From Gemmatimonadota bacterium (GTDB taxonomy: Bacteria; Gemmatimonadota; Gemmatimonadetes; Longimicrobiales; RSA9), in the NCBI GenBank assembly GCA_040905425.1, contig JBBDRO010000082.1, positions 1-21,903 on the forward strand: a stretch of DNA of 21,903 nucleotides, written 5' to 3'. The position numbers and the translations under genes are program-made. Position 1 is the stretch's first letter. The number at the start of each line of letters is the position of its first letter. Below, one piece after another: positions 1,026 to 16,934 of the stretch. The notes beneath the pieces are model-generated. The model was not told the DNA's origin. It searched no databases and saw only the letters and a list, made by a program, of their open reading frames with translations.

Positions 1026-1101
1026 AGGGGCGCCCGGGCCGCACGGAGCGGGCCAGGGCGAGTTGCGAAGGTCACGGGGAGTGTCCATTCCAGGAAAAGT
1101 C

Positions 1102-1131
1102 TTGACGTACGCTGGCCTGCCGTTGCACAAT
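1102..1131 (+). promoter_or_regulatory. Candidate sigma70-type promoter for the DyP cluster
   Basis: TTGACG (1102-1107), 18 nt spacer, CACAAT (1126-1131), in the divergent intergenic region. Confidence 0.4.
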
Positions 1132-1339
1132 GGGAGCGCGTCCAGGGCGTGTGGAGGGGCTTCGGCCCACCTGCCATCCGCACGTCCGGAGAAGCAGTTG
1201 ATGCAACCTCCCCGGTTAGGGCCACGCCATTGGGCGTTGCCTGCCTGGGTGCGTGCGGCTGTTTCCGAACGTTCCTTAGCACGTAACGCCAATACCATCC
1301 GGGCCTGCCCGCAGGTCCGCCTCTTTGCGGAGCATGCCA

Positions 1340-2758
1340 ATGACTACCGCTACAGCCACGCGTCCGGCATCCCGCGCCGCAAGTCTTCCTTCCTCGGCGA
1401 CGGAGCGGGATGGCGCCGTCCGCCAGGGCGGCATCACCGTGGTCACCGCCATCCTGCCGGGCCATACGGAGGAACTGCGTACACTGCTGCGCTGCATCGA
1501 CCGGGACGAGGATGCGGGCACCGACGTGGAGGACAACACCATCGTGCCGTTCGGCAAGCTGACCCGCGTGCACTTCGCGCGTTGGCTGGTCTTCGATGAG
1601 GCCACCGAGGTGCGCGGCCGGACGATCCCCGCCACGCTGGTCTTCTGCAGCAATTATGACGAGCCGCTGCAGGACCACCTCGCCGAGATGATCCGGGTGG
1701 CTGGCCCTGGGCTGGACCGGATCTACGGCCATTGCGCGGGCTACCCCTCGGCAGGACACCAGGAACCGGCGGCCGTGGCGGCCTATCTGCGAAACCACTG
1801 CCGGAAGGTGGACACCTTCTACAACGGCACCTACGGCAAGTCCGTGGATCAGATCCGCCGTGAGGCACGCCTGCGCCAGGCCATCGGAGAATTTCTGGAC
1901 GAGCGGGCGGCGCGGCCGGACGGCCCGCCGCGCGACGGTGCCGAGGTCCACCGGGCCGTGGTGGCGTTCGTGCGCGGTCGCCCCGACCTGGAGTGGGCCC
2001 TCACGCCGCCGCGCGCCACGCGCCCGCCGTTTCCCGGTGGCCCGCCGCTATGGGTCCTGCTTGGTGCCCTGGTGCTGGGCGTGATCGCGGCGCTCGTGGG
2101 CGCGCCCATGGCCACGCTGTCGATCCTGGCCGTCGTGCTCGTGGTGGCGCTCCTCTTCACCGCGGTCCTGCTCATCCACGAGCGCCGCGATGACGCTACC
2201 GCATGGACCGAAAAGCACCGTCCGAAGAAGCCGGACCTGGCCAGGCGCGAGGATCGGGTGGTCCAGAACCAGCTCAGCAGCGTCATCAACATCAAGCCTG
2301 GCCTGCTGCGGGCGGTAACGCTGCGCGGGGTGCTCTTTGCCATCAACGTCCTGGCCCGCCTCGTCTTCTACAAGGGCAAGCTCGGCACCATCCCTTCCAT
2401 CCATTTCGCGCGCTGGGTCATTGTGGACGATGGTCGCAGGCTGGCCTTTTTCAGCAACTTCGACGGCAGCTGGGAGAGCTACCTGGGCGAGTTCGTGGAC
2501 AAGGCGTCCACCGGACTCACCGCCGTATGGAGCAATTGCGTGGCGTTCCCGCGCACGCGCCTGCTGGTGACGCAGGGCGCGGCCAACGAGCAGGCCTTCA
2601 AATCGTACGCGCGTGACCGCCAGGTGGTGACCGATGTCTGGTACTCCGCCTACAAGACACTCACCGTGCTGAACATCACCAACAACTCTGAGCTCCGCAG
2701 AGGATTATCGGAAACGCTCGGCGGCGCGCGCCTCGAGGCGTGGCTGCGGCGGCTATAA
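1340..2758 (+). CDS. DyP-associated membrane-anchored protein with two HFARW-motif domains (uncharacterised, about 472 aa)
   Basis: GGAG 7 nt before ATG 1340 (alternative ATG 1334). Internal duplication VHFARWLVFDE..LVFCSNYD / IHFARWVIVDD..LAFFSNFD, separated by a hydrophobic two-helix hairpin (about 2048-2176). Ends 12 nt before the DyP gene. Confidence 0.85.
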   Translation: MTTATATRPASRAASLPSSATERDGAVRQGGITVVTAILPGHTEELRTLLRCIDRDEDAGTDVEDNTIVPFGKLTRVHFARWLVFDEATEVRGRTIPATLVFCSNYDEPLQDHLAEMIRVAGPGLDRIYGHCAGYPSAGHQEPAAVAAYLRNHCRKVDTFYNGTYGKSVDQIRREARLRQAIGEFLDERAARPDGPPRDGAEVHRAVVAFVRGRPDLEWALTPPRATRPPFPGGPPLWVLLGALVLGVIAALVGAPMATLSILAVVLVVALLFTAVLLIHERRDDATAWTEKHRPKKPDLARREDRVVQNQLSSVINIKPGLLRAVTLRGVLFAINVLARLVFYKGKLGTIPSIHFARWVIVDDGRRLAFFSNFDGSWESYLGEFVDKASTGLTAVWSNCVAFPRTRLLVTQGAANEQAFKSYARDRQVVTDVWYSAYKTLTVLNITNNSELRRGLSETLGGARLEAWLRRL

Positions 2759-2770
2759 GGGAGGGCCGAC

Positions 2771-4201
2771 ATGGAATATGCACTGGAGAAGGAGCGGATG
2801 CAGGGGCTCATCGTGCGCGGTTATGGCGGGCTGCCGTCGGCGCAATTCCTGGTACTGGGTTTTGGCGCCGCCAGCAGGGGGCGGGCGTGGCTGGCCGACC
2901 TGGCCGACCGGCTCACCGCCGCTACGGAGCGGCCGGAGCGGCGCGCACTGCACGCTGCCTTTACCCACGGCGGATTGAAACAGCTCGGTTTGCCGGCCGA
3001 GGCCCTGGCAAGCTTCTCCCCCGAATTCCAGGAGGGCATGTCCACGGGCCACCGCAGCCGCATCCTGGGCGATCATGGCGAGAGCGATCCCGCCCACTGG
3101 ACGTGGGGCGGCGGTTCCAGGGAGGTGCACGCGATCCTCATGCTCTACGCCGTGGATGATGAGGAGTTGGCGGCGTTCTTGAGCCACGAGGCGGGCAACC
3201 TTGCCGGCCACGACATCACCGTCGTGGCGGAACTGGACACCTTTGCCTGTCCCGACTTCCGCGAGCACTTCGGTTTCCGGGACGGCATCGCGCAGCCGAT
3301 CATCGACGGTCTGCCGCGTTCCGGTCCCGCGGACAATACGGTGGCACCAGGCGAGTTCGTGCTCGGTTATCCCAACCAGTACGAGCGCTTGCCCGGCTCG
3401 CCCACGGTAGCCGCGGCCACCGATCGGGCGGGCGTGCTTCCCCCTGACCCCGACGATGGCAACGGCGCCGCGGCGTGGCGCGATTTCGGCCGCAACGGCA
3501 CCTACATGGTGTTCCGCCAGCTCTCCCAGGACGTAAGAGGATTCTGGAGCTTCGTGGACCGGATGAGCCGCAACGCCAACGGCGAACAGCAACTCGACGA
3601 GTGCGTGGCGCTGGCCTCGAAGATGGTGGGCCGCTGGCCGAACGGAGCCCCGCTGGTGCTGGCGCCGGAGCGGGAGGAGCCGGCACACGCGGGTGAAGAC
3701 GCCTTTGCTTACCACGCCACCGATCCGCATGGTCTGCGCTGCCCCGTCGGCGCCCACATCCGGCGCGCCAACCCGCGTGACTCGCTGGCCCCGGATCCGG
3801 GGGATTCCACCGTGGTGTCCAACCGCCACCGGCTGCTGCGCCGTGGCCGCACGTACGGCAGGCCGGTGGCCATGTCCATGGAAGCCAAGGACGTGCTGGA
3901 AGCCGAGAGCTACGAAGGTGAGCGCGGTCTGCACTTCGTCTGCCTGAACACGGACATCGCACGCCAGTTCGAATTCGTCCAGCACACCTGGATCAACAAT
4001 CCCAAGTTCGAGGGCATGTACAATGATGTGGACGCCGTGAGCGGGGACCACGACAAGAAGAACGCCGGCTACTTCACCATCCCCGCGGAGCCCGTGCGAC
4101 GCCGCGTTCACGATGTGCCCCGCTTCGTTCACGTGCGCGGCGGCGCCTACTTCTTCATGCCGAGCATCGACGCCGTACGCTACCTGGCCGCGCTCACCTA
4201 G
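2771..4201 (+). CDS. Dye-decolorizing (DyP-type) heme peroxidase, long class C/D-like, 476 aa
   Basis: EHFGFRDGIAQP (GxxDG distal Asp), GAHIRRANPR (proximal His), HRLLRRGR (distal Arg), GLHFVCLNTDIARQFEFVQ, RGGAYFFMPS. SD AGGGAGG. No signal peptide seen. Confidence 0.95.
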   Translation: MEYALEKERMQGLIVRGYGGLPSAQFLVLGFGAASRGRAWLADLADRLTAATERPERRALHAAFTHGGLKQLGLPAEALASFSPEFQEGMSTGHRSRILGDHGESDPAHWTWGGGSREVHAILMLYAVDDEELAAFLSHEAGNLAGHDITVVAELDTFACPDFREHFGFRDGIAQPIIDGLPRSGPADNTVAPGEFVLGYPNQYERLPGSPTVAAATDRAGVLPPDPDDGNGAAAWRDFGRNGTYMVFRQLSQDVRGFWSFVDRMSRNANGEQQLDECVALASKMVGRWPNGAPLVLAPEREEPAHAGEDAFAYHATDPHGLRCPVGAHIRRANPRDSLAPDPGDSTVVSNRHRLLRRGRTYGRPVAMSMEAKDVLEAESYEGERGLHFVCLNTDIARQFEFVQHTWINNPKFEGMYNDVDAVSGDHDKKNAGYFTIPAEPVRRRVHDVPRFVHVRGGAYFFMPSIDAVRYLAALT

Positions 4202-4215
4202 CCGGAGGACTGGCC

Positions 4216-4833
4216 ATGCTGAACCTGAATCTGAATCCGAAGACGGATGTCCTGCCGTTCGTGGCCGCCACCGCGGGAGAGTTCGCCGCGCTCTTCTACT
4301 GGCTGCGCCTCCTCGAGGGCGGTCAGCCGTGGCTGGCCGCCGTGGTCCTCTGGGTGGGTTTCTCCGTGGAGCGCATCGCGGTAGCGCTCTGGATCCTTTT
4401 CGTCTACACCCCCAAGGACGCCAGCGCGCCGGCTCGGCCGCCGCTCTGGCAGAGCGCCCTCACGCTGGTGGCCATCACGGTCTCCGAGGTGCTCATCTGG
4501 GTGATCTGGCTGGCGCTGGCCCGGAGCAGCGGCCATCTGGTGGCGGGCGCCGTGCTCATGGCGCTCATGCTGGCCGAGCACAGCGTGGAGATGTCACTCA
4601 TCAAGCGGACGCCGCCCTTTGCATGGGTGACGAACCGGAGCACCATCTTCTTCACCGTCATGGAGGTCGCGGGCGGCATGGGCTGGCTCTACCTGACCTG
4701 GAACGGCCAGCCGCTGGCCGGCGCGGCCGTGCTGCTCGCCGGCCTCTCCGTGGAGCATGTGCTGCAGGGCTCCCAGCTCAAGCCGGAGGTGGTGGTGCGG
4801 CCGGCGCCGGCGCCGGAGCGGCAGCCAGCATGA
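4216..4833 (+). CDS. Uncharacterised 6-TM membrane protein made of three hairpin repeats with intramembrane Glu and Glu-His/Arg
   Basis: GGAGG SD; six hydrophobic segments; gapless repeat T-x2-E-x6-WL-x-L...VL-x6-E[HR] occurs three times. Confidence 0.85.
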   Translation: MLNLNLNPKTDVLPFVAATAGEFAALFYWLRLLEGGQPWLAAVVLWVGFSVERIAVALWILFVYTPKDASAPARPPLWQSALTLVAITVSEVLIWVIWLALARSSGHLVAGAVLMALMLAEHSVEMSLIKRTPPFAWVTNRSTIFFTVMEVAGGMGWLYLTWNGQPLAGAAVLLAGLSVEHVLQGSQLKPEVVVRPAPAPERQPA

Positions 4834-4886
4834 GCCGCGGCAGCGCGGGGCGCGCCCCGCGCCACGATCCGACCAAGGAGGATGCC

Positions 4887-5285
4887 ATGCCCATGAACCT
4901 GTCCACCCGCCGCCGGGTGCGCCGGGGAGCCCTGTTGCTGGCGCTCGCCTGCACGGCGGCCGCGAGCACCGGCTGCTACCGCTACCACGTCTACCGGGTG
5001 GGGGGCGCCGAGGGCAGGGAACTGGGCAACCAGCCCTCCACGGAGTGGCAGGGCCGGACCCTGCACGCCTTTGCCTGGGGCGCCGTGCGGCAGGATCTGC
5101 CCGTGGACAACTGCCCGGTCGTGAACGGCTACCGCACCGGCATCGAGGAGGTGCGCGTGGAGAACAACCTGGGCTACGTGGTGGCGTCCACCGTGACGCT
5201 CGGCCTGTGGGCGCCGCTCCGGGTGAGTTGGCGTTGTGCCCGCCCGCCCGTGCTGGCCGACACGCTCCAGGTGAGCCGGCCGTGA
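4887..5285 (+). CDS. Bor/Iss-like lipoprotein, about 132 aa
   Basis: AAGGAGG SD before ATG 4887. Basic n-region, hydrophobic core, lipobox-like ASTG-C. Mature part HAFAWG...C...V.VENNLGYVVASTVTLGLWAPLRVSWRC resembles the Bor family pattern with two Cys. Confidence 0.75.
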   Translation: MPMNLSTRRRVRRGALLLALACTAAASTGCYRYHVYRVGGAEGRELGNQPSTEWQGRTLHAFAWGAVRQDLPVDNCPVVNGYRTGIEEVRVENNLGYVVASTVTLGLWAPLRVSWRCARPPVLADTLQVSRP

Positions 5286-6817
5286 TCCGCCGCAACGGCG
5301 CGCAGGCGTGGGACAACGTGCACGTCACGTTCAGGGCGCAGCTGGACGACCTCATCGACGTGGACAACGGTCCGCCGGCGGGGGGCACCCAGCAACGCGG
5401 CTTTCCGCTCCTGCGGCAGGTGGCCGCCGACCTGGACGGCCTGGCCGCCGAAGCCCGCCAGCGCGGCAAGCGCATCCGGGCGCTCGGCTCCGGCTGGGCC
5501 CTCACCGACATTGCCCTCACCGATGGCTGGCTCATCAACACCAAGCCGCTGACCGGCTGCTTCGAGCTCTCCGAGCGCTACTTCGAGGATTCCTTCGAGC
5601 AGGCGCGGCGGCCGTTCGTGGTGCTGGCGCAGGCCGGCATCTCGGTGGGCCAGCTCAACACGCATCTGGAGTTGGGCGCCACGGCCGGCTTCCCGCGCGC
5701 GCTCCGCACGGCGGGCATCGGCGCCGGCCAGACCATCGCCGGCGCCGTGTCCGGCAACACGCATGGCTCCGCCATCAACTTCGGCGCCATGCCGGACTTC
5801 GTGGTGGGCATCCAGCTCGTCACGGGCTCCGGCCGGAGCCTCTGGTTGGAGCGCGCCTCGGAGCCCGTGCTGACGGACGAGTTCGTGGCCAAGCTCGGCG
5901 CTGAGCGGATGCGCGACGATGACGTCTTCGACGCCGCCGTCGTGAGCTTCGGCGCGTTCGGCATCATCACCGCCCTGGCCATCGAGACCGAGCCGCTCTA
6001 CCAGCTGGCCTTCGCCCCCGTGCACGACATCTCGCACGCCGACCTGAAGCACAAGCTGAGCCACCTGGCCTACGATGATCCACCCGGCCTGCACCACTAC
6101 GAGTTCGTGTTCGATCCCTACAGTTCAAACGAGATGGCCATGGAGGCCGTGGCCACCAAGGTGCCCGTCGAGCCGGGGCATACACCCCCCGAGCCGGTGT
6201 GGATCGTCCGCAGCGAGAAGGGCTTCGCGCTCGGCCCCCACACCCCTGGCGTGATCCTGGACCTGCCGCTGGTCACCCCGGCACAGAAGACCGCCTTCCA
6301 GTTCAAGCAGTACCGCGAGCGCTGCATCCTGGATGACACGCGCGGCACCCCCGGTCAGCTCTTCACCGCCACCATCACCTACCTGGAGGGCTACACGGAG
6401 TCCGCGCTGGGCGTCAGCGTCCACGACGCGGCCACCATGATCGACGTGAGCGCCCGCGTTATCCGGGACATGGACCTGCCCGCCATGGCCCAGGTGCGCG
6501 TGGCCCACCCGTCGCGCGCGCTGCTCGGCTTCACCTACCTGGCGCCGAAGACGGCGGTCTTCGAGTTCGGACTGGCCCATGACGACCGCTTCCCGGAGTT
6601 CGAGGACAACCTCACGGCGGCGCTCACGGCGGAGGGCGTGCGCTACACCTTCCACTGGTCCAAGAACTCCGGCCTCACACCCGCCCGCCTGCAGGCCATG
6701 TACGGCAACAGCCGCGTGCAGCGCTGGCGCGACGCCCGGAAGCGCGTCTTCCACGATGACGCCGCCCTGATGGAGGTGTTCAGCAACGAGCACCTCGAGC
6801 GGGCTGGCCTGGCCTGA
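5282..6817 (+). CDS. FAD-binding oxidoreductase, VAO/PCMH fold, ALO/L-gulonolactone-oxidase-like, about 511 aa
   Basis: GTG start overlaps the upstream stop (GTGA). RIRALGSGWA, AQAGISV, QTIAGAVSGNTHGS, SFGAFGII (FAD_binding_4-type) and C-terminal FHWSKN (compare ALO 'PHWGK'). Confidence 0.9.
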   Translation: MIRRNGAQAWDNVHVTFRAQLDDLIDVDNGPPAGGTQQRGFPLLRQVAADLDGLAAEARQRGKRIRALGSGWALTDIALTDGWLINTKPLTGCFELSERYFEDSFEQARRPFVVLAQAGISVGQLNTHLELGATAGFPRALRTAGIGAGQTIAGAVSGNTHGSAINFGAMPDFVVGIQLVTGSGRSLWLERASEPVLTDEFVAKLGAERMRDDDVFDAAVVSFGAFGIITALAIETEPLYQLAFAPVHDISHADLKHKLSHLAYDDPPGLHHYEFVFDPYSSNEMAMEAVATKVPVEPGHTPPEPVWIVRSEKGFALGPHTPGVILDLPLVTPAQKTAFQFKQYRERCILDDTRGTPGQLFTATITYLEGYTESALGVSVHDAATMIDVSARVIRDMDLPAMAQVRVAHPSRALLGFTYLAPKTAVFEFGLAHDDRFPEFEDNLTAALTAEGVRYTFHWSKNSGLTPARLQAMYGNSRVQRWRDARKRVFHDDAALMEVFSNEHLERAGLA

Positions 6818-6831
6818 GGAGGGGCCTCCCC

Positions 6832-7530
6832 ATGCAGCATTTCAAGCGACGTCCCCGCATCGCGCGCCGCGCGTTCCGCACGCTCGCGCTGGCGGCCACG
6901 CTGCCGGTGCTCGCGCCGGCGCTCACGTCGGCGCCCACGAGCGCGCAGGTCACCGATGCCGGCTTCGTCCCCAGACACAACCTCTTCGATCCGCACGTGG
7001 CGTACGCCGCGTATGCCTTCGACGACGCCGACATGGCGGCGCTGCGCGCCGACCTGTGGGGCAGCGCCTGGGGCGTGACACTCCTCGGCGGCATGCAGTT
7101 CGTGGACGGCGCGGACAACGGTGTCCAGGCCGCGGGCGTCCTCATGCGCCAGCTCCAGGCGCACGCCAACTGCTTCGGCGCGGCGTGCGTGGGCATTCAG
7201 TTGCAGGCGGGCGCCGCGCTGACGCGCCGGGACGGTGTCTCCGTCGTGGAGGCGCCCGCGGCGCTCGGCCTCATCCAGCGCTTCAGCGTCCCGCGGCTCG
7301 GCGTCTTTCCCGGCGTGGTCGGCCATGGCTGGGCGAGCGGCTCGGTCGTCGGCCGGTGGGCGGACAACCTCGACGAAGTGGGCTGGGGGCTGGGCCTGGG
7401 TCTCCGCACCACGTTCCACGGCGCCCTGGCGCCATGGGGCGCGCACGTCTTCGGCGGCTGGCGCTGGTTCGACGGCCCCGTGGACCGAAAGCTCGAGCTG
7501 GGCATTCATCGTGTCCTGAAGCGCATCTGA
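6832..7530 (+). CDS. Exported protein, possibly a small outer-membrane beta-barrel, 232 aa
   Basis: GAGGAGG SD. Signal peptide (RRPRIARRAFRTLALAATLPVLAP...TSA-Q). Alternating Gly/aromatic strands (VGWGLGLGLRTTF, WGAHVFGGWRWF, KLELGIHRV). Confidence 0.7.
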   Translation: MQHFKRRPRIARRAFRTLALAATLPVLAPALTSAPTSAQVTDAGFVPRHNLFDPHVAYAAYAFDDADMAALRADLWGSAWGVTLLGGMQFVDGADNGVQAAGVLMRQLQAHANCFGAACVGIQLQAGAALTRRDGVSVVEAPAALGLIQRFSVPRLGVFPGVVGHGWASGSVVGRWADNLDEVGWGLGLGLRTTFHGALAPWGAHVFGGWRWFDGPVDRKLELGIHRVLKRI

Positions 7531-7532
7531 GC

Positions 7533-8612
7533 ATGAGCAGCTACGGCTCCGTCACGATCCGGACGCGGGACACGTCGGCGCTCGATCCCAACAGCCCGGC
7601 GTGTGATGCCCACGCCAGCTTTCAGGCGCTGGCCACCACCGGTCGCCCGATCCTGATCGAGATCGGCCAGGCGCCGTTTCGGGGCAAGCGGAAGGCACGC
7701 TACCACCGAGAGGACTCGCCCGGAATGAACCGCGCCGAGAACCATTTCCAGGGCATGGCGCGCCACGGTGACACCCTCTACCTCACCGGCGCCGACTGGG
7801 ACGAGCCCGCCGCGCACCTTTTCGTCTGCGCGCTGGACACGGACGCGGGGGGCGCCCCCACCGGCGCGCGCCTGGAGAGCGTGCTCGCCCTGGACACCGA
7901 GCTGCCGCACGCCGGCGGTGTGCAGCGCCTGGGGGATGTGCTGGTCGTGGCGCTTGAGGGGCCGGCCCGGGATTCCCGCGTGCGCTTCCTGCACCTGGAA
8001 GACCCCGCGCGGCCCACCTTCGTGGGCGGACACAGCGAGATCGTGCGTACGGGACAGACCAAGGCCAGCGCGGGCGCCGTGGCCCGTATGGCCGACGGTC
8101 GGCTGCTGGTGGGCGTGGCCTGGCGCAACGCGCTCGACCTCTACCTCACGCGGGATGCGGATCTCCGCAACGGCTACGTGCCGGCCGGCGGTGCGCCCGC
8201 GCCCCGCACGCTGGATCTGGGACCCACGCACGGCAAGCCTGCCTACCAGGCCATTGCCTTCCTGCCTCCCGAAGAGTGGGCGCGGGCGGATGGCGGCGCC
8301 CGCGAGGTGCGGCTGCCCGTCGTGGGCTTCCGCAACACCAGCCAGGCGCTGTCCAACTGGTGGCGGGGGGAGGATCACGCGGACCTCTTCGAGTTGATCA
8401 TTCCCGGCCAGGCGCTCGATGCCTGGCCCGGTGGCCCCGAGATCCTGATCCGCCCGATCACCTCCAGCGCCTTCGACTTCGGCCGCTTCGACGGCAACTT
8501 CTCCGCCGCGGCGGGTCTCGACGTGGAGGCGGGCGGCGCCCTGGCCATCTACGCGGCGCATCACTGGCGCACCGGTGAGGGGATCAGGTTCAGCGTCTGT
8601 GGGGGCGGGTGA
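7533..8612 (+). CDS. Hypothetical protein, probable beta-propeller, about 359 aa
   Basis: ATG 2 nt after the upstream stop. Recurrent blade-like motifs NHFQGMARHGDTLYLTG, PHAGGVQRLGDVLVVALE, KASAGAVARMADGRLLVGV, PAYQAIAF, NFSAAAGLDV. Confidence 0.7.
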   Translation: MSSYGSVTIRTRDTSALDPNSPACDAHASFQALATTGRPILIEIGQAPFRGKRKARYHREDSPGMNRAENHFQGMARHGDTLYLTGADWDEPAAHLFVCALDTDAGGAPTGARLESVLALDTELPHAGGVQRLGDVLVVALEGPARDSRVRFLHLEDPARPTFVGGHSEIVRTGQTKASAGAVARMADGRLLVGVAWRNALDLYLTRDADLRNGYVPAGGAPAPRTLDLGPTHGKPAYQAIAFLPPEEWARADGGAREVRLPVVGFRNTSQALSNWWRGEDHADLFELIIPGQALDAWPGGPEILIRPITSSAFDFGRFDGNFSAAAGLDVEAGGALAIYAAHHWRTGEGIRFSVCGGG

Positions 8613-8652
8613 GAGGCGGTTCTTCCCTTGAGTGCGAGAAAAGGAGTACGCG

Positions 8653-10308
8653 ATGCTTGATCCGATTTCAGCCCTGAGTGGCGTCGGCACGCTGACGGAC
8701 ATTCTCACACGTGGTGGTCCTCCAGCGGTGCTCGCGGTGTTCGTGGTCTACCTGATCCGTGTCTCGGCCAGGAACATCGACAAGGCCAGCAACGATGAGG
8801 ACAGGCAGCACTACCGAGCGGTCCACCGGTCGATCGTCCGCATGACCTACGTGGTGACGGTGGTGGTCCTGGCGTTCTTCTTCATGGGCTTCTTCTTTCC
8901 CACCCGGCAGCCTGTATCTGGTGTGGTGACCGGGCTGACGCAGCGCGAAACCGAGCCGGTGAGCGCGTCGGATCCAGCTCTCCTCCTGCAGAGTATCCAA
9001 CCGCGCAATCCCAACCTTCATTTCTACCGACTGGCCACCTACGAGGAGGACAGTGATCGTGTCAACCTGAGCTGGATCATCCGGCCGACCGAGGTCGCCA
9101 CGATGATCGAGCTGACCTTCGTGCACCATTATCTACTCCTCGAGGATGCGCCGGGCCCGGCCACGCCGAGCCGGCGGTCCCAGCCACGGCCCGTTTCCGA
9201 GCGCATCAAACGCGATTTTGTCGTGGACCTGAGGAAGATCGGGTATGCCTGGCCGCAGGACATCGAACTGCAGTATATCCCGAACACCGTCGACTCCGTC
9301 CGGGCGGTCGGCTCCCTGCACGTGAGGATCGGAGCGGGCGAATGGGAGCCACTCGAGTGGTCCACCCTGGCGCCACCCGCGGTGGCCACGCGTCGCGACG
9401 GGCGGCAGCCGACCGCCCTGCTAGCTCGCCTCTCGCGCCTGTTGGTAGGCGCCGTGAAAGCGCAGCAACTGCGGCTGTCCTCCGCGCGCCTGGACGCCGA
9501 TCGCCTGCGCCGGGATCTGGCTTCGGGTGATCTTCAACGCGAGGCACGGGCGCTCCAGATGCTGCTCGAGAACGTGGCGGCGCCCGATGACCTCGTGATG
9601 CTCGTGGAGCCGTCGAGATTGCAGAGCTTGAACGCCGTGGAGCGGGGGAATCTGATACGCAATACCTGGCATGCCATGCAGGATCTCCGCGGCGATGCCG
9701 ACGCGCCGGCGGTTTCGGATTCGGTCCTCTCCCGGATGGGTAGCACACTGTATCGTCTCGGGGATTATCCGCTCGCTGCCGAAGCGTTCAAAGGTATCCG
9801 GGATCCGGCACAGCTTTCCGATAGCACGCGGTTTTATCGCGCGTACGTGTTCCATGTATCAGGGCTGGCGGAAGATGCGTTGCGGGCGTACGCGGCCGTG
9901 CTGGATTCCGAGACGGACCCGTTCGTCCGTTCGGCGGCCTACGACAATCTGGCCGGACTCAGGTACCAGCGGGGCGAGCTTCCCGAAGCGGAATCGGCCT
10001 GGCGCAGGTCACTGGAGCTGGATGCCCATAACGATGAGGCGCTCAATAATCTGGCCTGGATCCTCCAGGAGGACCCGGATCGCCTGCAGGAGGCGCTCCG
10101 TCTGGTCACGAGGGCGCTGGAGTTGAAGCCCGGCACACCCGAATACCTGGACACGCGTGGTTGCCTTCTCCTGCGTCTCGAGCGTACTGAGGACGCTGTA
10201 CGCGCCTTCGCCGCCGCGGCCGATATCGCACCGGGTGAGCGCACGATTGCGGCGCATCTCGAGAACGCCCGTGCAGCTGGAGGAGGACGCTATCGCTGCC
10301 CCATGTGA
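8653..10308 (+). CDS. Membrane-anchored tetratricopeptide repeat protein, about 551 aa
   Basis: AAGGAG SD before ATG 8653. Two N-terminal TM helices. C-terminal TPRs (AYDNLAGLRYQRGELPEAESAWRRSLELDA; ALNNLAWIL...ALELKP; YLDTRGCLLLRL...AVRAF). Confidence 0.85.
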   Translation: MLDPISALSGVGTLTDILTRGGPPAVLAVFVVYLIRVSARNIDKASNDEDRQHYRAVHRSIVRMTYVVTVVVLAFFFMGFFFPTRQPVSGVVTGLTQRETEPVSASDPALLLQSIQPRNPNLHFYRLATYEEDSDRVNLSWIIRPTEVATMIELTFVHHYLLLEDAPGPATPSRRSQPRPVSERIKRDFVVDLRKIGYAWPQDIELQYIPNTVDSVRAVGSLHVRIGAGEWEPLEWSTLAPPAVATRRDGRQPTALLARLSRLLVGAVKAQQLRLSSARLDADRLRRDLASGDLQREARALQMLLENVAAPDDLVMLVEPSRLQSLNAVERGNLIRNTWHAMQDLRGDADAPAVSDSVLSRMGSTLYRLGDYPLAAEAFKGIRDPAQLSDSTRFYRAYVFHVSGLAEDALRAYAAVLDSETDPFVRSAAYDNLAGLRYQRGELPEAESAWRRSLELDAHNDEALNNLAWILQEDPDRLQEALRLVTRALELKPGTPEYLDTRGCLLLRLERTEDAVRAFAAAADIAPGERTIAAHLENARAAGGGRYRCPM

Positions 10309-10835: not shown

Positions 10836-10851
10836 TGGCGCCGCCCGTGCA
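10836..10851 (+). promoter_or_regulatory. Sigma54-like -24/-12 element upstream of the ChaN-like gene
   Basis: TGGCGCCGCCCGTGCA has GG-N10-GC spacing; 14/16 identical to the element upstream of PBP1A. Confidence 0.3.
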
Positions 10852-10864
10852 GTATCATTCCCCC

Positions 10865-11995
10865 ATGAGAAACCAGCTGCAGCTCCGACTCTTCCTGCCC
10901 CTTGCGCTGGTCGTGGCCGCCGGCGTCCCGGCCGCGGCGGCCGCGCAGGACCACCCGCCCGTCCTCCCGGACACCGCCTACACGCCCGGCGCGTACCGCG
11001 TCTTCACGGGCGCGGGTGAACCCGCGCGCCTGGAGGACGTGGTGCGAGCCATGGGCGGCCACGAGGTGGTCTTTATCGGTGAGACCCACGACGATCCCAC
11101 CGGGCACATGCTGGAGCGTGAGCTGCTGGCCCGGGCGTACGCCGCCTACGGCGCGCCGGACGGCCAGCCGAAGCCGGGTGCCGGGGGAGAGACCCGGGGA
11201 GCGGAGGCCGCGAGTGTGGACGCGGCCGGCGGCGCGGACGCGGGCCGGTCCCGCGCGCTGGCGCTGTCGCTTGAAGCCTTTGAACGGGACGTGCAACTCG
11301 TGCTGGACGAGTATCTGGCAGGCCTCATCACCGAGACCGCCTTCCTGGCGGACAGCCGTCCCTGGCCGCGCTACCTGACCGACTACCGCCCGCTCGTGGA
11401 GTCCGCGAAGGAGCACGGGCTGGACGTGATCGCGGCCAACGCGCCGCGGCGCTACGTGAGCCGCGTCACGCAGCAGGGGCGGGCGGCGCTGCACGAACTC
11501 CCCCCCGCGGCGTTGGAGCTGCTGCCGCCGCTGCCGTACGGACAGCCCTCGCCGGCCTACCGCGATCAGTGGATCGCCGTCATCTCCGCGGTGATGGCGG
11601 GGGAGACCATGAAGTGCGGGGTGCCGGTGGAGCAGCCGCCGGCCCACGCGGGCGCGCATGCCAACATGGGCAACCAACTGCACAGCCAGGTGCTCTGGGA
11701 CGCCAGCATGGCGTACTGGATCGCGCGCCATCTGGACGCCCCGGAGGACGCCCGGACGGGTGCTCGGCCGGACGCCCTGGTGCTCCACGTCGTGGGTGGC
11801 TTCCACGTGGCGCGCGGCACCGGCACGCCGGAGCAGCTCGAAGCCTATCGACCGGGCACACGGGCCATGGTCGTGATGCTGCGGCCGGTGGCCGACGTGG
11901 GCGCGTTCGAGGCCGCACCCGCTGGGCAGTGGGGCGACTTCGTCATCCAGACGGACGAGGCGCGCACGCTCGAAGCCATCGAGTGCCGGAGCTAG
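10865..11995 (+). CDS. ChaN/PhuW (EreA-ChaN-like, heme/cofactor-binding) family exported protein, about 376 aa
   Basis: Signal peptide ending AAAAA-QD. VVFIGETHDD, LSLEAFERDVQ..LDEYLAG, YRPLVE.AK...VIAANAPR, QVLWDASMA, VGGFHV..G.G.P. Confidence 0.9.
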   Translation: MRNQLQLRLFLPLALVVAAGVPAAAAAQDHPPVLPDTAYTPGAYRVFTGAGEPARLEDVVRAMGGHEVVFIGETHDDPTGHMLERELLARAYAAYGAPDGQPKPGAGGETRGAEAASVDAAGGADAGRSRALALSLEAFERDVQLVLDEYLAGLITETAFLADSRPWPRYLTDYRPLVESAKEHGLDVIAANAPRRYVSRVTQQGRAALHELPPAALELLPPLPYGQPSPAYRDQWIAVISAVMAGETMKCGVPVEQPPAHAGAHANMGNQLHSQVLWDASMAYWIARHLDAPEDARTGARPDALVLHVVGGFHVARGTGTPEQLEAYRPGTRAMVVMLRPVADVGAFEAAPAGQWGDFVIQTDEARTLEAIECRS

Positions 11996-14313: not shown

Positions 14314-15609
14314 CTACTCCGGGTTCGGCGCTTCGATCACCCGCGCCTCCTCCACGCCGCGTCCGCGGACAGCCGAGACCTCGAGCACCACACCCTCGTG
14401 CTCCACGCGGTCTCCGACCGCGGGCGCCCGCCCCAGCTTGGCCATGACGAGGCCGCTCACCGTGTCCACTTCATCGTGCTCGAGGATGAGGCCCAGAGCC
14501 TCGCCCAGTTCGTCCACCCGGACGGTTCCGGCCACGGCGGTGCGCCCATCCTCCGTCTTCCGGATGGCGGGCCGTTCGCCGGGGTCGGCCAGGTCACCCA
14601 CCACCTCTTCGAAGATGTCCTCGAGGGTAAGGATGCCCGCCGTGCCGCCGTGTTCGTCCATGACCACCGCCAGGTGGGAGCGCGAGCGGCGGAGCGCCGC
14701 CAACACCCGCTCGAGCGGCTCGGTGGCCGGCACGAACGGGACCTCCCGTACCAGGCTGCGCTCCAGCGTACGGCCGCCCCGGAGGCCGGTCACCAGATCC
14801 TTCACATGCACCGCGCCGACCACGTTGTCGAGTGAGCCCTCGTAGACGGGAAAGCGCGTGTGTCGTTCGGTGCCGAGCACCTCGGCCGTCTGGGCCCGGG
14901 TGGCGCCGAGTGGGAGTGCCAGGACGCGCGTGCGCGGCACCATGATCTCGCCCGCCGTGAGCTCGGCGAACTCCAGAAGTTCCTGGAGGATGCGCGCCGG
15001 TTCGCGCGCCAGCATCCCGCCCGCGCGGCTCTCTGCCACGATGAAGCTCAGCTCGTTCGCCGTGCGGTAGCTCTCCGCGCCCGTGGCGGAGCGCTCCACG
15101 CCGGCCAGCTTCAGGATGCCGTTGCCGATGCCGTTCAGCGCCAGCACCAGCGGGTAGAGGCCCAGCTCGATGCCTCGCATGGGCAGCGCCACGGCCATGG
15201 CCACGCGGGCAGGGGACTGCAGCGCCAGTGACTTGGGTACCATCTCCCCGAGGACCACGTGGAGGTACGTGAGGAACGTGACGGCCACCACACTGGCCAG
15301 CGCGTGGGCGCCGATCCAGCGCAGTATGCCGAAGGCTTCGAACTGGTGTGCCAGCCACTCGGCCAGCAGGTGCTCACCGTACATGCCCAGCGCGAGGCTG
15401 GCGGAGGTGATGCCGAGCTGGGCCGTGGCAATGTAGCGGTCCTGCTCACGGGCGTCGGCCAGCACGCGCTGAACCATACGCGCCATGCGGTTGCCTTTCC
15501 TGGCCGCGCGTTCCACCTCCAGCCGGGAGGAGCCGATGATGGCAAACTCCGCGGCCACGAAGACGCCGTTCAGGGCAATGAGCAGGGTGATGATGAGGGC
15601 GGGGATCAT
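14314..15609 (-). CDS. Hemolysin-family CNNM/CorC protein (DUF21 + CBS pair + CorC_HlyC), 431 aa
   Basis: NGVFVAAEFA, QLGITSASLALG, HVVLGEMVPKSLAL, IMVPR, HTRFPVY, VMDEHGGTAGILTLEDIFEEVVG, DTVSGLV. Confidence 0.95.
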   Translation of the reverse strand: MIPALIITLLIALNGVFVAAEFAIIGSSRLEVERAARKGNRMARMVQRVLADAREQDRYIATAQLGITSASLALGMYGEHLLAEWLAHQFEAFGILRWIGAHALASVVAVTFLTYLHVVLGEMVPKSLALQSPARVAMAVALPMRGIELGLYPLVLALNGIGNGILKLAGVERSATGAESYRTANELSFIVAESRAGGMLAREPARILQELLEFAELTAGEIMVPRTRVLALPLGATRAQTAEVLGTERHTRFPVYEGSLDNVVGAVHVKDLVTGLRGGRTLERSLVREVPFVPATEPLERVLAALRRSRSHLAVVMDEHGGTAGILTLEDIFEEVVGDLADPGERPAIRKTEDGRTAVAGTVRVDELGEALGLILEHDEVDTVSGLVMAKLGRAPAVGDRVEHEGVVLEVSAVRGRGVEEARVIEAPNPE

Positions 15610-16934
15610 GCGGGGCCCCCGCTCGGCTCGTCGTCCCCCACCGCCTTCGCCAACACGCTCAGTACGGCGTGGCGCTCCATAGTCTCCACCTGCACCGTGA
15701 CGCCGTCGATGTCCAGCGTCTCACCGGGCTCAGGAATGTGCCCCAGGCGCTCCATGATCAGCCCGCCTACCGTGTCCGATTCCCCGTCCCAGAGTGTGCC
15801 GATCCACGGCGTGGCATCGTGCAGCAGCATGTCCCCCGGCAGGCGGACGCGGCCGTCCGCCAGCTTTTCCGGCTGCCCGCCGGCGTGCTTGTACTCGTCG
15901 GCCACCTCGCCCAGCAGTTCGGTGAGGATGTCCTCCGTAGTGATGATCCCGGCCGTGCCGCCGAAGTCATCCACCACCACGGCCATGATGCCGCGCTCCC
16001 GGCGCATGAGAGCCAGCACGCGATCGGCGGACACGCGCTCGTGCACCGCCAGGATGGGCCGCACGAGCGGCTCGAGCGGCTCGCCCGCCTCGCTCTCCCC
16101 CGACACCCAGGCCATGGCCAGGTCCTTGGCGTGCACCATGCCCACGATATCATCGATGGAACCCTCGTATACCGGCAGGCGCGTGTACGGCAGGTCCGCC
16201 GCCCTGGCCACCGCGGCCGCGAGTCCGGCGTCCTGGTCCAGCGCAACCACCCGCGTGCGCGGTACCATCAGCTCCCCCGCCGTGCGCTGCGTCAGCCCCA
16301 GGGCGTGCACGATGCGGCGCTGCTCCTCCGGCTGCAGGTGGCCGCCCGCCCGGCTCTCCGCCACCAGGTACTTGATCTCCTCAGCCGAGTGCAGGTGGCG
16401 GTGCGCCTTGGGCTCCACGCCAATGAGGCGAAGCACGATCCAGCCGCTGCCGTTCAGCACGGTGATGAACCATCCGAGCAGCTTCTGGGACCAGCGCAGC
16501 GGGATAACGGTGAGCAGCGCAACGCGCGTGGGGAACTGGAGCGCCAGTGATTTCGGCACCAGCTCGCCCAGGACCATCTGGAAGGTGGTGAGGACAATGA
16601 GCACCACCGCCGCCGAGGTGGACTGCGCCGCCACCGTCTGCATACTGCCCCAGCGCTCAAAGAGCGGCGCGAGCGCCTGCCCGAGCGTGGCCTGCCCGTA
16701 GGCGCCGAGCACCAGGCTGGACACGGTGATGCCCACCTGGCAGGCGGCAATGTAGCGGTCCAGACGCGGCGCTTCGTCCAGCGTGGGCAGGAGCCGGCGC
16801 GCCAGGCGGTTGCCCTCCTCCGCCATCTGCCGGACGCGGCTTCGCCGCACACTCACCGCCGCGAATTCCGCCGCCACGTACAGCCCGTTGAGCGTGATCA
16901 GGACGGCCAGGACAATCCAGGTGAAGGGGCTCAA
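15606..16934 (-). CDS. Hemolysin-family CNNM/CorC protein, second paralogue, 442 aa
   Basis: NGLYVAAEFA, QVGITVSSLVLG, VLGELVPKSLAL, YTRLPVY, VVDDFGGTAGIITTEDIL. TTG start; ATGA overlap with the downstream paralogue. Confidence 0.95.
   Translation of the reverse strand: MSPFTWIVLAVLITLNGLYVAAEFAAVSVRRSRVRQMAEEGNRLARRLLPTLDEAPRLDRYIAACQVGITVSSLVLGAYGQATLGQALAPLFERWGSMQTVAAQSTSAAVVLIVLTTFQMVLGELVPKSLALQFPTRVALLTVIPLRWSQKLLGWFITVLNGSGWIVLRLIGVEPKAHRHLHSAEEIKYLVAESRAGGHLQPEEQRRIVHALGLTQRTAGELMVPRTRVVALDQDAGLAAAVARAADLPYTRLPVYEGSIDDIVGMVHAKDLAMAWVSGESEAGEPLEPLVRPILAVHERVSADRVLALMRRERGIMAVVVDDFGGTAGIITTEDILTELLGEVADEYKHAGGQPEKLADGRVRLPGDMLLHDATPWIGTLWDGESDTVGGLIMERLGHIPEPGETLDIDGVTVQVETMERHAVLSVLAKAVGDDEPSGGPA

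Follow-up and report, generated by a model that had tools for sequence, protein, structure and literature searches.

Does a tidy run of co-oriented genes around a peroxidase encode one redox system, or several independent ones lying side by side? The question is raised by a contig of a Gemmatimonadota bacterium (GenBank assembly GCA_040905425.1; genome of 4.12 Mb in 115 contigs, approximately 70% G+C), the entire length of which, 21,903 bp, is the window analysed here. A preliminary description of seven genes in this window (G1 to G7, positions 1340 to 8612) had taken them for an undescribed envelope redox system, in which a flavoprotein oxidase supplies H2O2 to a DyP-type peroxidase. We favour a composite reading, at a probability of around 0.6: G1, G2 and G3 would constitute a membrane-associated peroxidase module, G4 and G5 a separate pair, and G6, G7 and the next gene, G8, lineage-restricted neighbours, all of them carried on one strain-variable 9.2-kb block. 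G1-G2-G3 is the local form, lacking a cytochrome P450 (P450), of a widespread module, and no description of it was found in the literature searched. The claim of an undescribed system stands for G1-G2, with G3 in this clade, and not for the seven genes. The features concerned are the following.

G1, 1340-2758, plus strand: 472 amino acids; predicted tandem ABM-like double barrel with two HFARW motifs and a transmembrane hairpin; obligate partner of the DyP.
G2, 2771-4201, plus strand: 476 amino acids; predicted class-V (C/D-type) DyP haem peroxidase, without signal peptide.
G3, 4216-4833, plus strand: predicted membrane protein of six helices, with Glu...Glu-(Arg/His) repeated three times; occupies the third place in this clade.
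G4, 4887-5285, plus strand: 132 amino acids; putative Bor-like lipoprotein; starts a separate two-gene module.
G5, 5282-6817, plus strand: 511 amino acids; VAO-family ALO-like flavoprotein, without signal peptide, with Trp in place of the covalent-FAD His.
G6, 6832-7530, plus strand: 232 amino acids; rare, exported-looking; no conserved partners.
G7, 7533-8612, plus strand: 359 amino acids; rare, beta-propeller-like, without signal peptide; no conserved partners.
G8, 8632-10308, plus strand: membrane plus TPR protein (TPR family matches), inside the strain-variable block.
G1-G8 block, 1060-10287: 9,228 bp, present or absent between co-occurring related populations.
ChaN-type gene, 10847-11995, plus strand: just past the block.

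The strongest link in this set is that between G1 and G2. It was followed through 160 G1 loci, 80 from species genomes (found by G1 alignment) and 80 from metagenomes; the metagenome relatives share at most 59% identity with G1 in the best segment and 49% where most of G1 is covered, and the 64-79%-identity relatives of G1 known as proteins are not among them. Informative are 149 of the loci, the other 11 stopping at most 205 nt past G1, and in all 149 a G2 homologue comes directly after G1. The two are separate genes in 125 cases (median gap 9 nt) and fused in frame in 24, the fused forms making up a single clade on the G1 tree (FastTree). Carriers named among the species-genome loci belong to the Gemmatimonadota, Bacteroidota, Myxococcota, Acidobacteriota, Actinomycetota, Planctomycetota, Chloroflexota and Pseudomonadota; among them are Archangium minus, Halomonas heilongjiangensis, Segetibacter aerophilus, Hanamia caeni and Algoriphagus sediminis. 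No G1 was found in 36 genomes from other genera of the source family. G1 and G2 are an obligate pair. Complex modelling of gene pairs, which the preliminary description had proposed, bears out this one: G1 (residues 25-472) with G2 scored 0.86, the best of three controls 0.00, and in the benchmark of the score 116 of the 157 solved complexes reached the mark, as did 2 of the 215 mismatched pairs (rough counts, own alignments having been used). At least 89% of the contacts are common to the runs, with a partner pLDDT of at least 89. The modelled interface comprises residues 375-388, 440-448 and 466-472 of G1, its most conserved stretch, and residues 395-417 and 438-447 of G2, and suggests that G1 binds G2.

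What kind of protein is G1? It had been described as a membrane protein with a doubled HFARW motif, and both motifs (VHFARW and IHFARW) as well as two hydrophobic helices are present. Among 8000 candidates scored, 422 are homologues at E≤0.001, and none of these bears a Pfam domain, save a few that also carry DyP_N. G1 itself matches no Pfam (E≤0.01) or NCBIfam family, and at E≤10 Pfam gives only chance-level matches on the hydrophobic part. The AlphaFold2 model (pLDDT 81.3) consists of two ferredoxin-like repeats parted by helices 237-252 and 256-283. It is matched best by 9lmn_B (Z 15.2; 226 residues aligned at rmsd 4.2), followed among others by 9ltx_A (Z 11.4) and 3mcs_B (Z 10.0); tandem ABM/SchA-like polyketide-tailoring proteins rank first in the wide fold search, and Foldseek concurs (E 2.7e-5). 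From these models, G1 is predicted to consist of two ABM-like barrels in tandem with a membrane hairpin between them. The protein would share the two-repeat ferredoxin-like barrel with the tandem ABM/SchA-like proteins of aromatic polyketide pathways, such as WhiE-ORFI (9lmn) and Abx(+)O (9ltx), and differ from them in its low identity (10-12%), in the membrane hairpin inserted between the repeats and in being tied to a DyP. No link to ABM was found at the sequence level with the Pfam ABM models, and a G1 profile gave only chance-level matches to PDB sequences (E at least 0.32). As to G1 being a degenerate DyP, BLASTP gave no match to the DyP family and hhalign a probability of 0.09, and the 50 fold-search matches listed contain no DyP. 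Basic residues lie on both sides of the hairpin and the loop between its helices has four residues only; both G1 domains would therefore face the cytoplasm.

The ABM fold raises an alternative that we consider quite unlikely, namely that G1 is a haem protein, in which the HFARW His of each half-barrel binds haem and which serves as a membrane-anchored, cytochrome-like relay or as a haem handler for the DyP and P450. His78, Arg81, His355, Arg358 and Trp359 are invariant in 15 G1 sequences, on strands that correspond between the two repeats, the haem-binding ABM-fold proteins IsdG and MhuD do appear in the G1 fold search, if only as weak rows (Z 4.1), and in the triple fusions described below the G1 module lies between two haem domains. 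However, G1 has no sequence similarity to IsdG-type proteins, and its best fold matches are cofactor-free polyketide-tailoring proteins.

The identification of G2 as a DyP-type peroxidase in the preliminary description is upheld, since G2 scores above the cut-off of TIGR01413 (107.4 vs 100.5 bits). Its Pfam matches remain below threshold (DyP_N 24 vs 27.5, Dyp_perox_C 16.9 vs 20), and TIGR01412, the EfeUOB-type DyP family, gives 22.3 bits vs a cut-off of 428. The closest solved chains are 8re3 and 8re2 (E 3.4e-62), both of DrDyP from Deinococcus radiodurans. Asp171 of the GFRDG motif, His329 (GAHIRRANPR) and Arg357, Arg358 and Arg360 are invariant in 12 sequences and align with solved DyPs; passages of two studies assign haem-site roles in DyPs to the distal Asp of GXXDG, a distal Arg and the proximal His (PMC9719856, PMC10820274), and DrDyP and G2 have these three in common. 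Haem binding and peroxidase activity are predictions for G2. Its N-terminus begins with the conserved first strand of the family, with no extension and no signal peptide, including of the Tat type, and G2 should therefore be cytoplasmic. The earlier remark that the locus fits none of the familiar DyP contexts also holds: EfeUOB, encapsulin-cargo and Sco/ECuC/DtpA settings, as treated in part of PMC9719856, have the DyP haem peroxidase in common with the window, but no EfeU, EfeO, encapsulin or copper-chaperone family was found by Pfam on the scanned open reading frames of the window.

One residue of G2 deserves attention in relation to G1. Trp407, which is invariant, lines up with the Trp in F-x-Q-x-x-W-A-N of fungal D-type DyPs, and the residues beside Trp407 (405-406 and 410-412) contact G1 in the model. 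According to PMC9719856, class V DyPs conserve a Trp at the surface, 'site 5'. From this statement and the aligned ranges, we infer that Trp407 corresponds to the fungal-type surface radical Trp. DrDyP, formerly placed in class C and now in class V, was characterised alone and is inactive alone at physiological pH, according to the part of PMC10820274 that deals with it; G2 comes paired with G1.

Has the G1-G2 pair been met before under another name? Subclass V4 of the DyPs is described in PMC9719856, as far as its relevant passage goes, as P450, 'some transmembrane regions' and DyP in one chain, with no experiments reported. When G1 was searched against plasmids with tblastn, its C-terminal repeat was recovered within giant proteins annotated as cytochrome P450 or DyP-domain proteins. 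These include P450-G1-like-DyP triple fusions with a hydrophobic hairpin in mid-chain on Novosphingobium aromaticivorans pNL2 (1443 amino acids) and Sulfitobacter pSpoCB-1 (1620 amino acids). By blastp, G1 maps to residues ~510-930 of both fusions, between P450 and DyP; in Skermanella, P450, G1-like protein and DyP are three overlapping genes, and the structural neighbours of G1 in the ESM Atlas include the same fused clusters. By these alignments, G1 is the unrecognised middle module of the published V4 fusions. The window resembles V4 in having a class-V DyP preceded by a G1-like membrane module, and departs from it in that G1 and DyP are separate genes, a six-helix Glu/His protein (G3) follows, and tblastn with four P450 queries found no P450 of this family in the 4.12 Mb of the genome (E≤1e-5). 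Beyond the V4 paper (PMC9719856), full-text searches brought up no description of the G1 partner protein. The analogy offered there for V4 is that of the fungal Ppo dioxygenase/peroxidase-P450 fusion oxygenases. Ppo enzymes likewise join a haem peroxidase-type enzyme with P450 in one unit, and patatin-like lipase genes adjoin some G1-G2 loci; the Ppo peroxidase fold is, however, unrelated to DyP, and the window has no P450.

A remote form of the module was seen in genome G031, which belongs to the source family. At locus L196 (G031:C1, 5134-9235, minus strand), ABM-like repeats are followed by a DyP (35% identity) and a P450 (42% identity to that of Skermanella); no hairpin was seen. The ABM-like repeats of this locus match both halves of G1, and the two halves of G1 are therefore homologous to each other.

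The accessory genes beside G1-G2 were counted twice, over the full set of 160 loci and over the 81 whose flanks reach at least 2.5 kb each way, with the following results.

P450 family: 52 of 160 loci; 34 of 81 long-flank loci.
ABA4-like: 15 of 160; 9 of 81.
G3: 11 of 160; 8 of 81.
VAO-type flavoprotein: 4 of 160; 4 of 81.
Patatin: 5 of 160; 2 of 81.
None of these five types: 88 of 160; 37 of 81.

P450 is thus the commonest third partner elsewhere; 20 of its genes are upstream in the same orientation, 17 downstream and 15 upstream in divergent orientation. Besides the window, G3 is found in 11 loci, directly behind G2 or, in L023, with a P450 in between, and 10 of the 11 are devoid of P450. 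Because of this, and because the source genome has no such P450 either, G3 occupies the third position in this clade. The genes downstream of G3 differ in each of the six G3-type loci examined, in which G1-G2-G3 is self-contained. The proposal that G3 is a six-helix protein with a triple Glu/His repeat was confirmed: the AlphaFold2 model consists of six long helices (pLDDT 88.6), and E22, E52, R53, E91, H122, S123, E150, E180 and H181 are invariant. G3 belongs to no Pfam family, and its best matches by Foldseek (E 0.27) and by fold search (Z 7.2) are in the chance range for helical bundles. A relationship with the ABA4-like proteins was considered and rejected (hhalign probability 1.2).

Other genes were noticed near G1-G2, some loci lying among genes of the kinds usual in defence islands. 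A large Ser/Thr-kinase-AAA-GAF protein is found in 25 loci, patatin phospholipase genes are found in L018, L021, L059, L063 and L129, and TIR+SIR2 proteins in L049, L159, L160, L134 and L055. L107 has an endonuclease and a GH25 protein, that is, a nuclease together with a lysozyme.

How might the module work? In our proposal, the two ABM-like half-barrels of G1, joined by the two-helix membrane hairpin, would bind the cytoplasmic DyP and keep it at the inner face of the membrane. There, the DyP would use peroxide to oxidise a lipophilic or aromatic substrate, which G1 would take from the membrane, or whose electrons it would relay, through the DyP surface around Trp407. G3 would fill the place that a dedicated P450 has in other lineages, and the G4-G5 pair, recruited beside the DyP module a few times, might provide a facultative supply of peroxide or substrate. 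The gene anatomy, the pairing and fusion of G1 and G2, the folds and the spread of the accessory genes are shown; the binding (from the model), the topology, the role of Trp407, the substrate class and any coupling of G5 to the DyP are the parts of this scheme that we infer. A bolder extension, which we put forward as tentative and more probably wrong than right, would make G1 the missing physiological partner of class-C/V DyPs. They would then form a new membrane-anchored, two-subunit peroxidase in which a cofactor-free or haem-binding double ABM barrel feeds the DyP through a surface Trp, the third subunit being interchangeable (P450, G3 or ABA4-like) and a non-covalent ALO-like flavoprotein being recruited in a few lineages as supplier of peroxide or substrate.

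The same arrangement could also be read as protective, although we think this unlikely: G1 would pass electrons from membrane quinol, or from G3, to the DyP, which would reduce cytoplasmic H2O2 or lipid hydroperoxides. A membrane-anchored G1 with a cytoplasmic G2 suits such a role, and so do the ABM-fold relatives, which act on anthrone- and quinone-like aromatics, the G1 contact surface around the conserved Trp407 and the fact that the module works here without P450. Against it, no quinone-binding motif or cofactor site was identified, and the patchy spread (none of the 36 same-family genomes) would be unusual for a housekeeping defence. The presence of P450 in 52 of the 160 loci, with SnoaL-like and patatin genes sometimes adjacent, is better accommodated by a small-molecule pathway.

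The interest of the module goes beyond this locus. For most bacterial DyPs neither the natural substrate nor the role is known, and DrDyP, the nearest solved relative of G2, is inactive in isolation at physiological pH (PMC10820274). An obligate partner alters how class-V DyPs should be studied, that is, together with G1. The window contributes a version of the module that has G3 and no P450, and an association with an ALO-like flavoprotein that is rare yet recurs.

Do G4 and G5 belong to this module? G4 had been called a Bor-like lipoprotein. All 7 family members keep the lipobox Cys; the window copy matches PF06291 (Bor) weakly and below the cut-off (14.4 vs 25 bits, E 0.042), while 5 of the 7 members match (best E 2.8e-6). 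G4 is, from these matches, a probable lipoprotein remotely related to Bor. The designation of G5 as an ALO-like flavoprotein holds up. G5 carries FAD_binding_4 (PF01565, 47.8 bits vs a cut-off of 26.4), but the sugar-lactone-oxidase subfamilies TIGR01679 (70.1 vs 292 bits) and TIGR01678 (66.1 vs 397) match its N-terminal FAD-binding part only, and the ALO domain PF04030 was not matched. Its best structural-chain matches are 8ot8, 2vfr and the GLDH chain 7a24_z. The GSGW of G5 aligns with the GSGH of 8ot8 and of the ALO-type protein of L107, and the Trp is found in G5 and in all 7 G5-type sequences aligned. The C-terminal HWSK aligns with the HWGK of the L107 protein, a motif that we take to be a marker of the ALO family. 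Loss of covalent FAD accompanies dehydrogenase-like behaviour in plant GLDH. As the G5 family has Trp for the covalent-FAD His, H2O2 production by G5 is therefore not predictable. G5 shares the FAD_binding_4 domain with ALO, GULO, GLDH and xylitol/alditol oxidase of the VAO family, and differs from the VAO aldonolactone oxidoreductases in lacking a PF04030 match, in the Trp for the GSGH His and in having the gene of a Bor-like lipoprotein always ahead of it.

G5 homologues at 54-71% identity are numerous in protein searches, and sparse in genomes (matches in 5 of 61 relatives and in 8 of 401 genomes of the phylum, source genome included). A Bor-like G4 homologue lies directly upstream of a G5 homologue in 7 other loci, 5 of which have no G1 or G2 nearby. 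The G1 profile found no match in the five G5-carrying genomes G408, G231, G430, G293 and G190, whereas it did in the controls G000 and G044; the sixth, G031, contains only the remote ABM-DyP-P450 set mentioned above, apparently hairpin-less and ~1.1 Mb from its G4-G5 pair. G4-G5 is a separate two-gene module, independent of the DyP module in most genomes. G4 is exported and G5 has no signal peptide, though their genes overlap by 4 nt here and adjoin in the 7 other loci.

The remaining genes of the array are rarer. Among 1.84 billion proteins, G6 has no more than 8 remote representatives (31-40% identity), and no homologue of it was found near homologues of G1, G5 or G7. G7 has 5 homologues (38-51% identity) among 5.8 billion proteins, and 4 distant genomic homologues with other window genes nowhere nearby. 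The earlier suggestions that G6 is exported and G7 propeller-like both agree with what was seen, G6 having a signal-like N-terminus and the ESM Atlas model of G7 resembling lectin, DUF6454 and LVIVD propellers. G8 shows no similarity to the TPR protein upstream of the Sulfitobacter fusion. Homologues of G6, G7 or G8 occur in none of the 160 G1 loci; these three are neighbours restricted to the lineage, and nothing demonstrable ties them to either module.

Why, then, do eight genes of different affinities form such an orderly array? In the runs X1 and X3, of which X1 may be the source sample, contigs (310 nt in X1, 3,941 nt in X3) join position 1059 to position 10288 via 4 filler letters. This block-absent form is devoid of 1060-10287, that is, of G1 through G8 except for the last 20 nt of G8. 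Its left flank differs from the window at 45 of 490 positions (~91% identity) and its right flank at 3 of 2,213 (~99.9%). Two contigs represent the block-present form, one of 9,534 nt from X1 and one of 2,023 nt from X2. No repeats were found at the block boundaries and no tRNA in the window, and neither GC nor GC3 (GC at third codon positions) sets the block apart from its flanks. The eight genes are inherited here as one accessory block, and their tidy arrangement is therefore explained without a common function.

As to the arrangement itself, the preliminary description was exact on the coordinates of seven co-oriented genes and on their gaps (12, 14, 53, -4, 14 and 2 nt), and right that seven genes are included, but the array does not end at 8612: the tight run continues on the same strand with G8 (gap 19 nt), an Smr gene (gap 63) and the ChaN gene (gap 28), up to 11995. 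G1 to G7 are each single-copy in the source genome. A promoter scan gave 3 promoter-like sites, none at the start of an array gene. No terminator-like site lies between array genes, which is uninformative since the scan total of 4 is no different from the shuffled-control mean of 4.2, and the sole plus-strand site falls within G1.

Several points weigh against the composite reading and the mechanism proposed for its core. The eight genes of the block come and go as one, point the same way at short spacing and are not parted by any predicted terminator, so that they may be co-transcribed and functionally linked locally. The nearest kin of G1 (64-79% identity) may also share the arrangement. The complex score is the model's own confidence, from alignments that are unpaired and shallow (15 and 12 rows), and the equivalence of Trp407 is founded on aligned ranges and on the statement in PMC9719856. 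The substrate class is a guess from the ABM polyketide-tailoring fold relatives and the variable neighbours (P450, patatin, SnoaL-like, ABA4-like), and the P450 partner, which resembles ordinary O2-activating bacterial P450s, indicates no single chemistry. The composite reading itself takes in the recurrent flavoprotein: a G5-like or ALO-type flavoprotein is co-oriented near G1-G2 in L032/L038, L107 and L143. Flavoprotein, G1-G2 and P450 form one co-oriented array in Chryseolinea (L032/L038); the flavoprotein is directly upstream of G1 in L107; and in L143 a lipoprotein-like open reading frame and a G5-like gene lie downstream of G1-G2. A flavoprotein hidden Markov model gave 4 matches in 2.1 Mb of G1 loci vs 1, G5 itself, in the 4.12-Mb genome, and the association occurs at three separate positions of the G1 tree, the window counted. 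We read the flavoprotein beside G1-G2 as a real but rare recruitment; a facultative link between G5 and the DyP, through peroxide or substrate for example, is possible. In the Chryseolinea locus L032, two DUF2589 genes and a 1273-amino-acid protein without Pfam match were seen between G4-G5 and G1-G2-P450 (7260-8624).

Could these observations mean that all seven, or eight, genes form one envelope redox system, in which H2O2 from G5 is consumed by the DyP and G3, G4, G6 and G7 take part in substrate or cofactor traffic? The co-orientation, the short spacing (-4 to 53 nt), the lack of terminator-like sites between the genes, the presence or absence of G1-G8 as a unit between related populations and the recurrence of the flavoprotein are what such a system would lead one to expect. 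Yet we hold it to be very unlikely, because co-occurrence beyond the first two genes, on which the preliminary description had placed weight, extends in the 160 loci to G3 in 11 and to a G5-like gene in 4, with G4 in 2 of those 4, both of one genus, and to G6, G7 and G8 in none. The genes after G3 change from one G3-type locus to the next, G4-G5 stands alone in genomes without G1, the covalent-FAD His is missing in G5, and the best G1 and G5 homologues are on contigs of unlike size, a weak proxy. The notion of a single envelope machine does not fit the signals either, as an export signal is lacking in G2, G5, G7 and the two domains of G1, of which G2 and the G1 domains appear to be cytoplasmic, whereas G4 and G6 are exported. 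The oxidase-peroxidase couple is partly supported, in that the flavoprotein recurs at the three tree positions; against it, 145 of the 149 informative loci have none. A tidy seven-gene array can, on the composite reading that we prefer, be a mosaic of independent modules.

PADLOC found 0 matches for the window proteins. Outside the block, the ChaN-type haem-binding protein gene is a core gene, present at 59-65% identity (tblastn) in 5 of 5 same-family genomes; in a comparison anchored on it, none of its window neighbours was syntenic in these five genomes, and the age of the block is not datable in this way. Further along, at 14314-16934 on the minus strand, two tandem paralogues of CNNM/CorC-type (CBS-domain) transporters adjoin a CitMHS/TrkA-C transporter gene.

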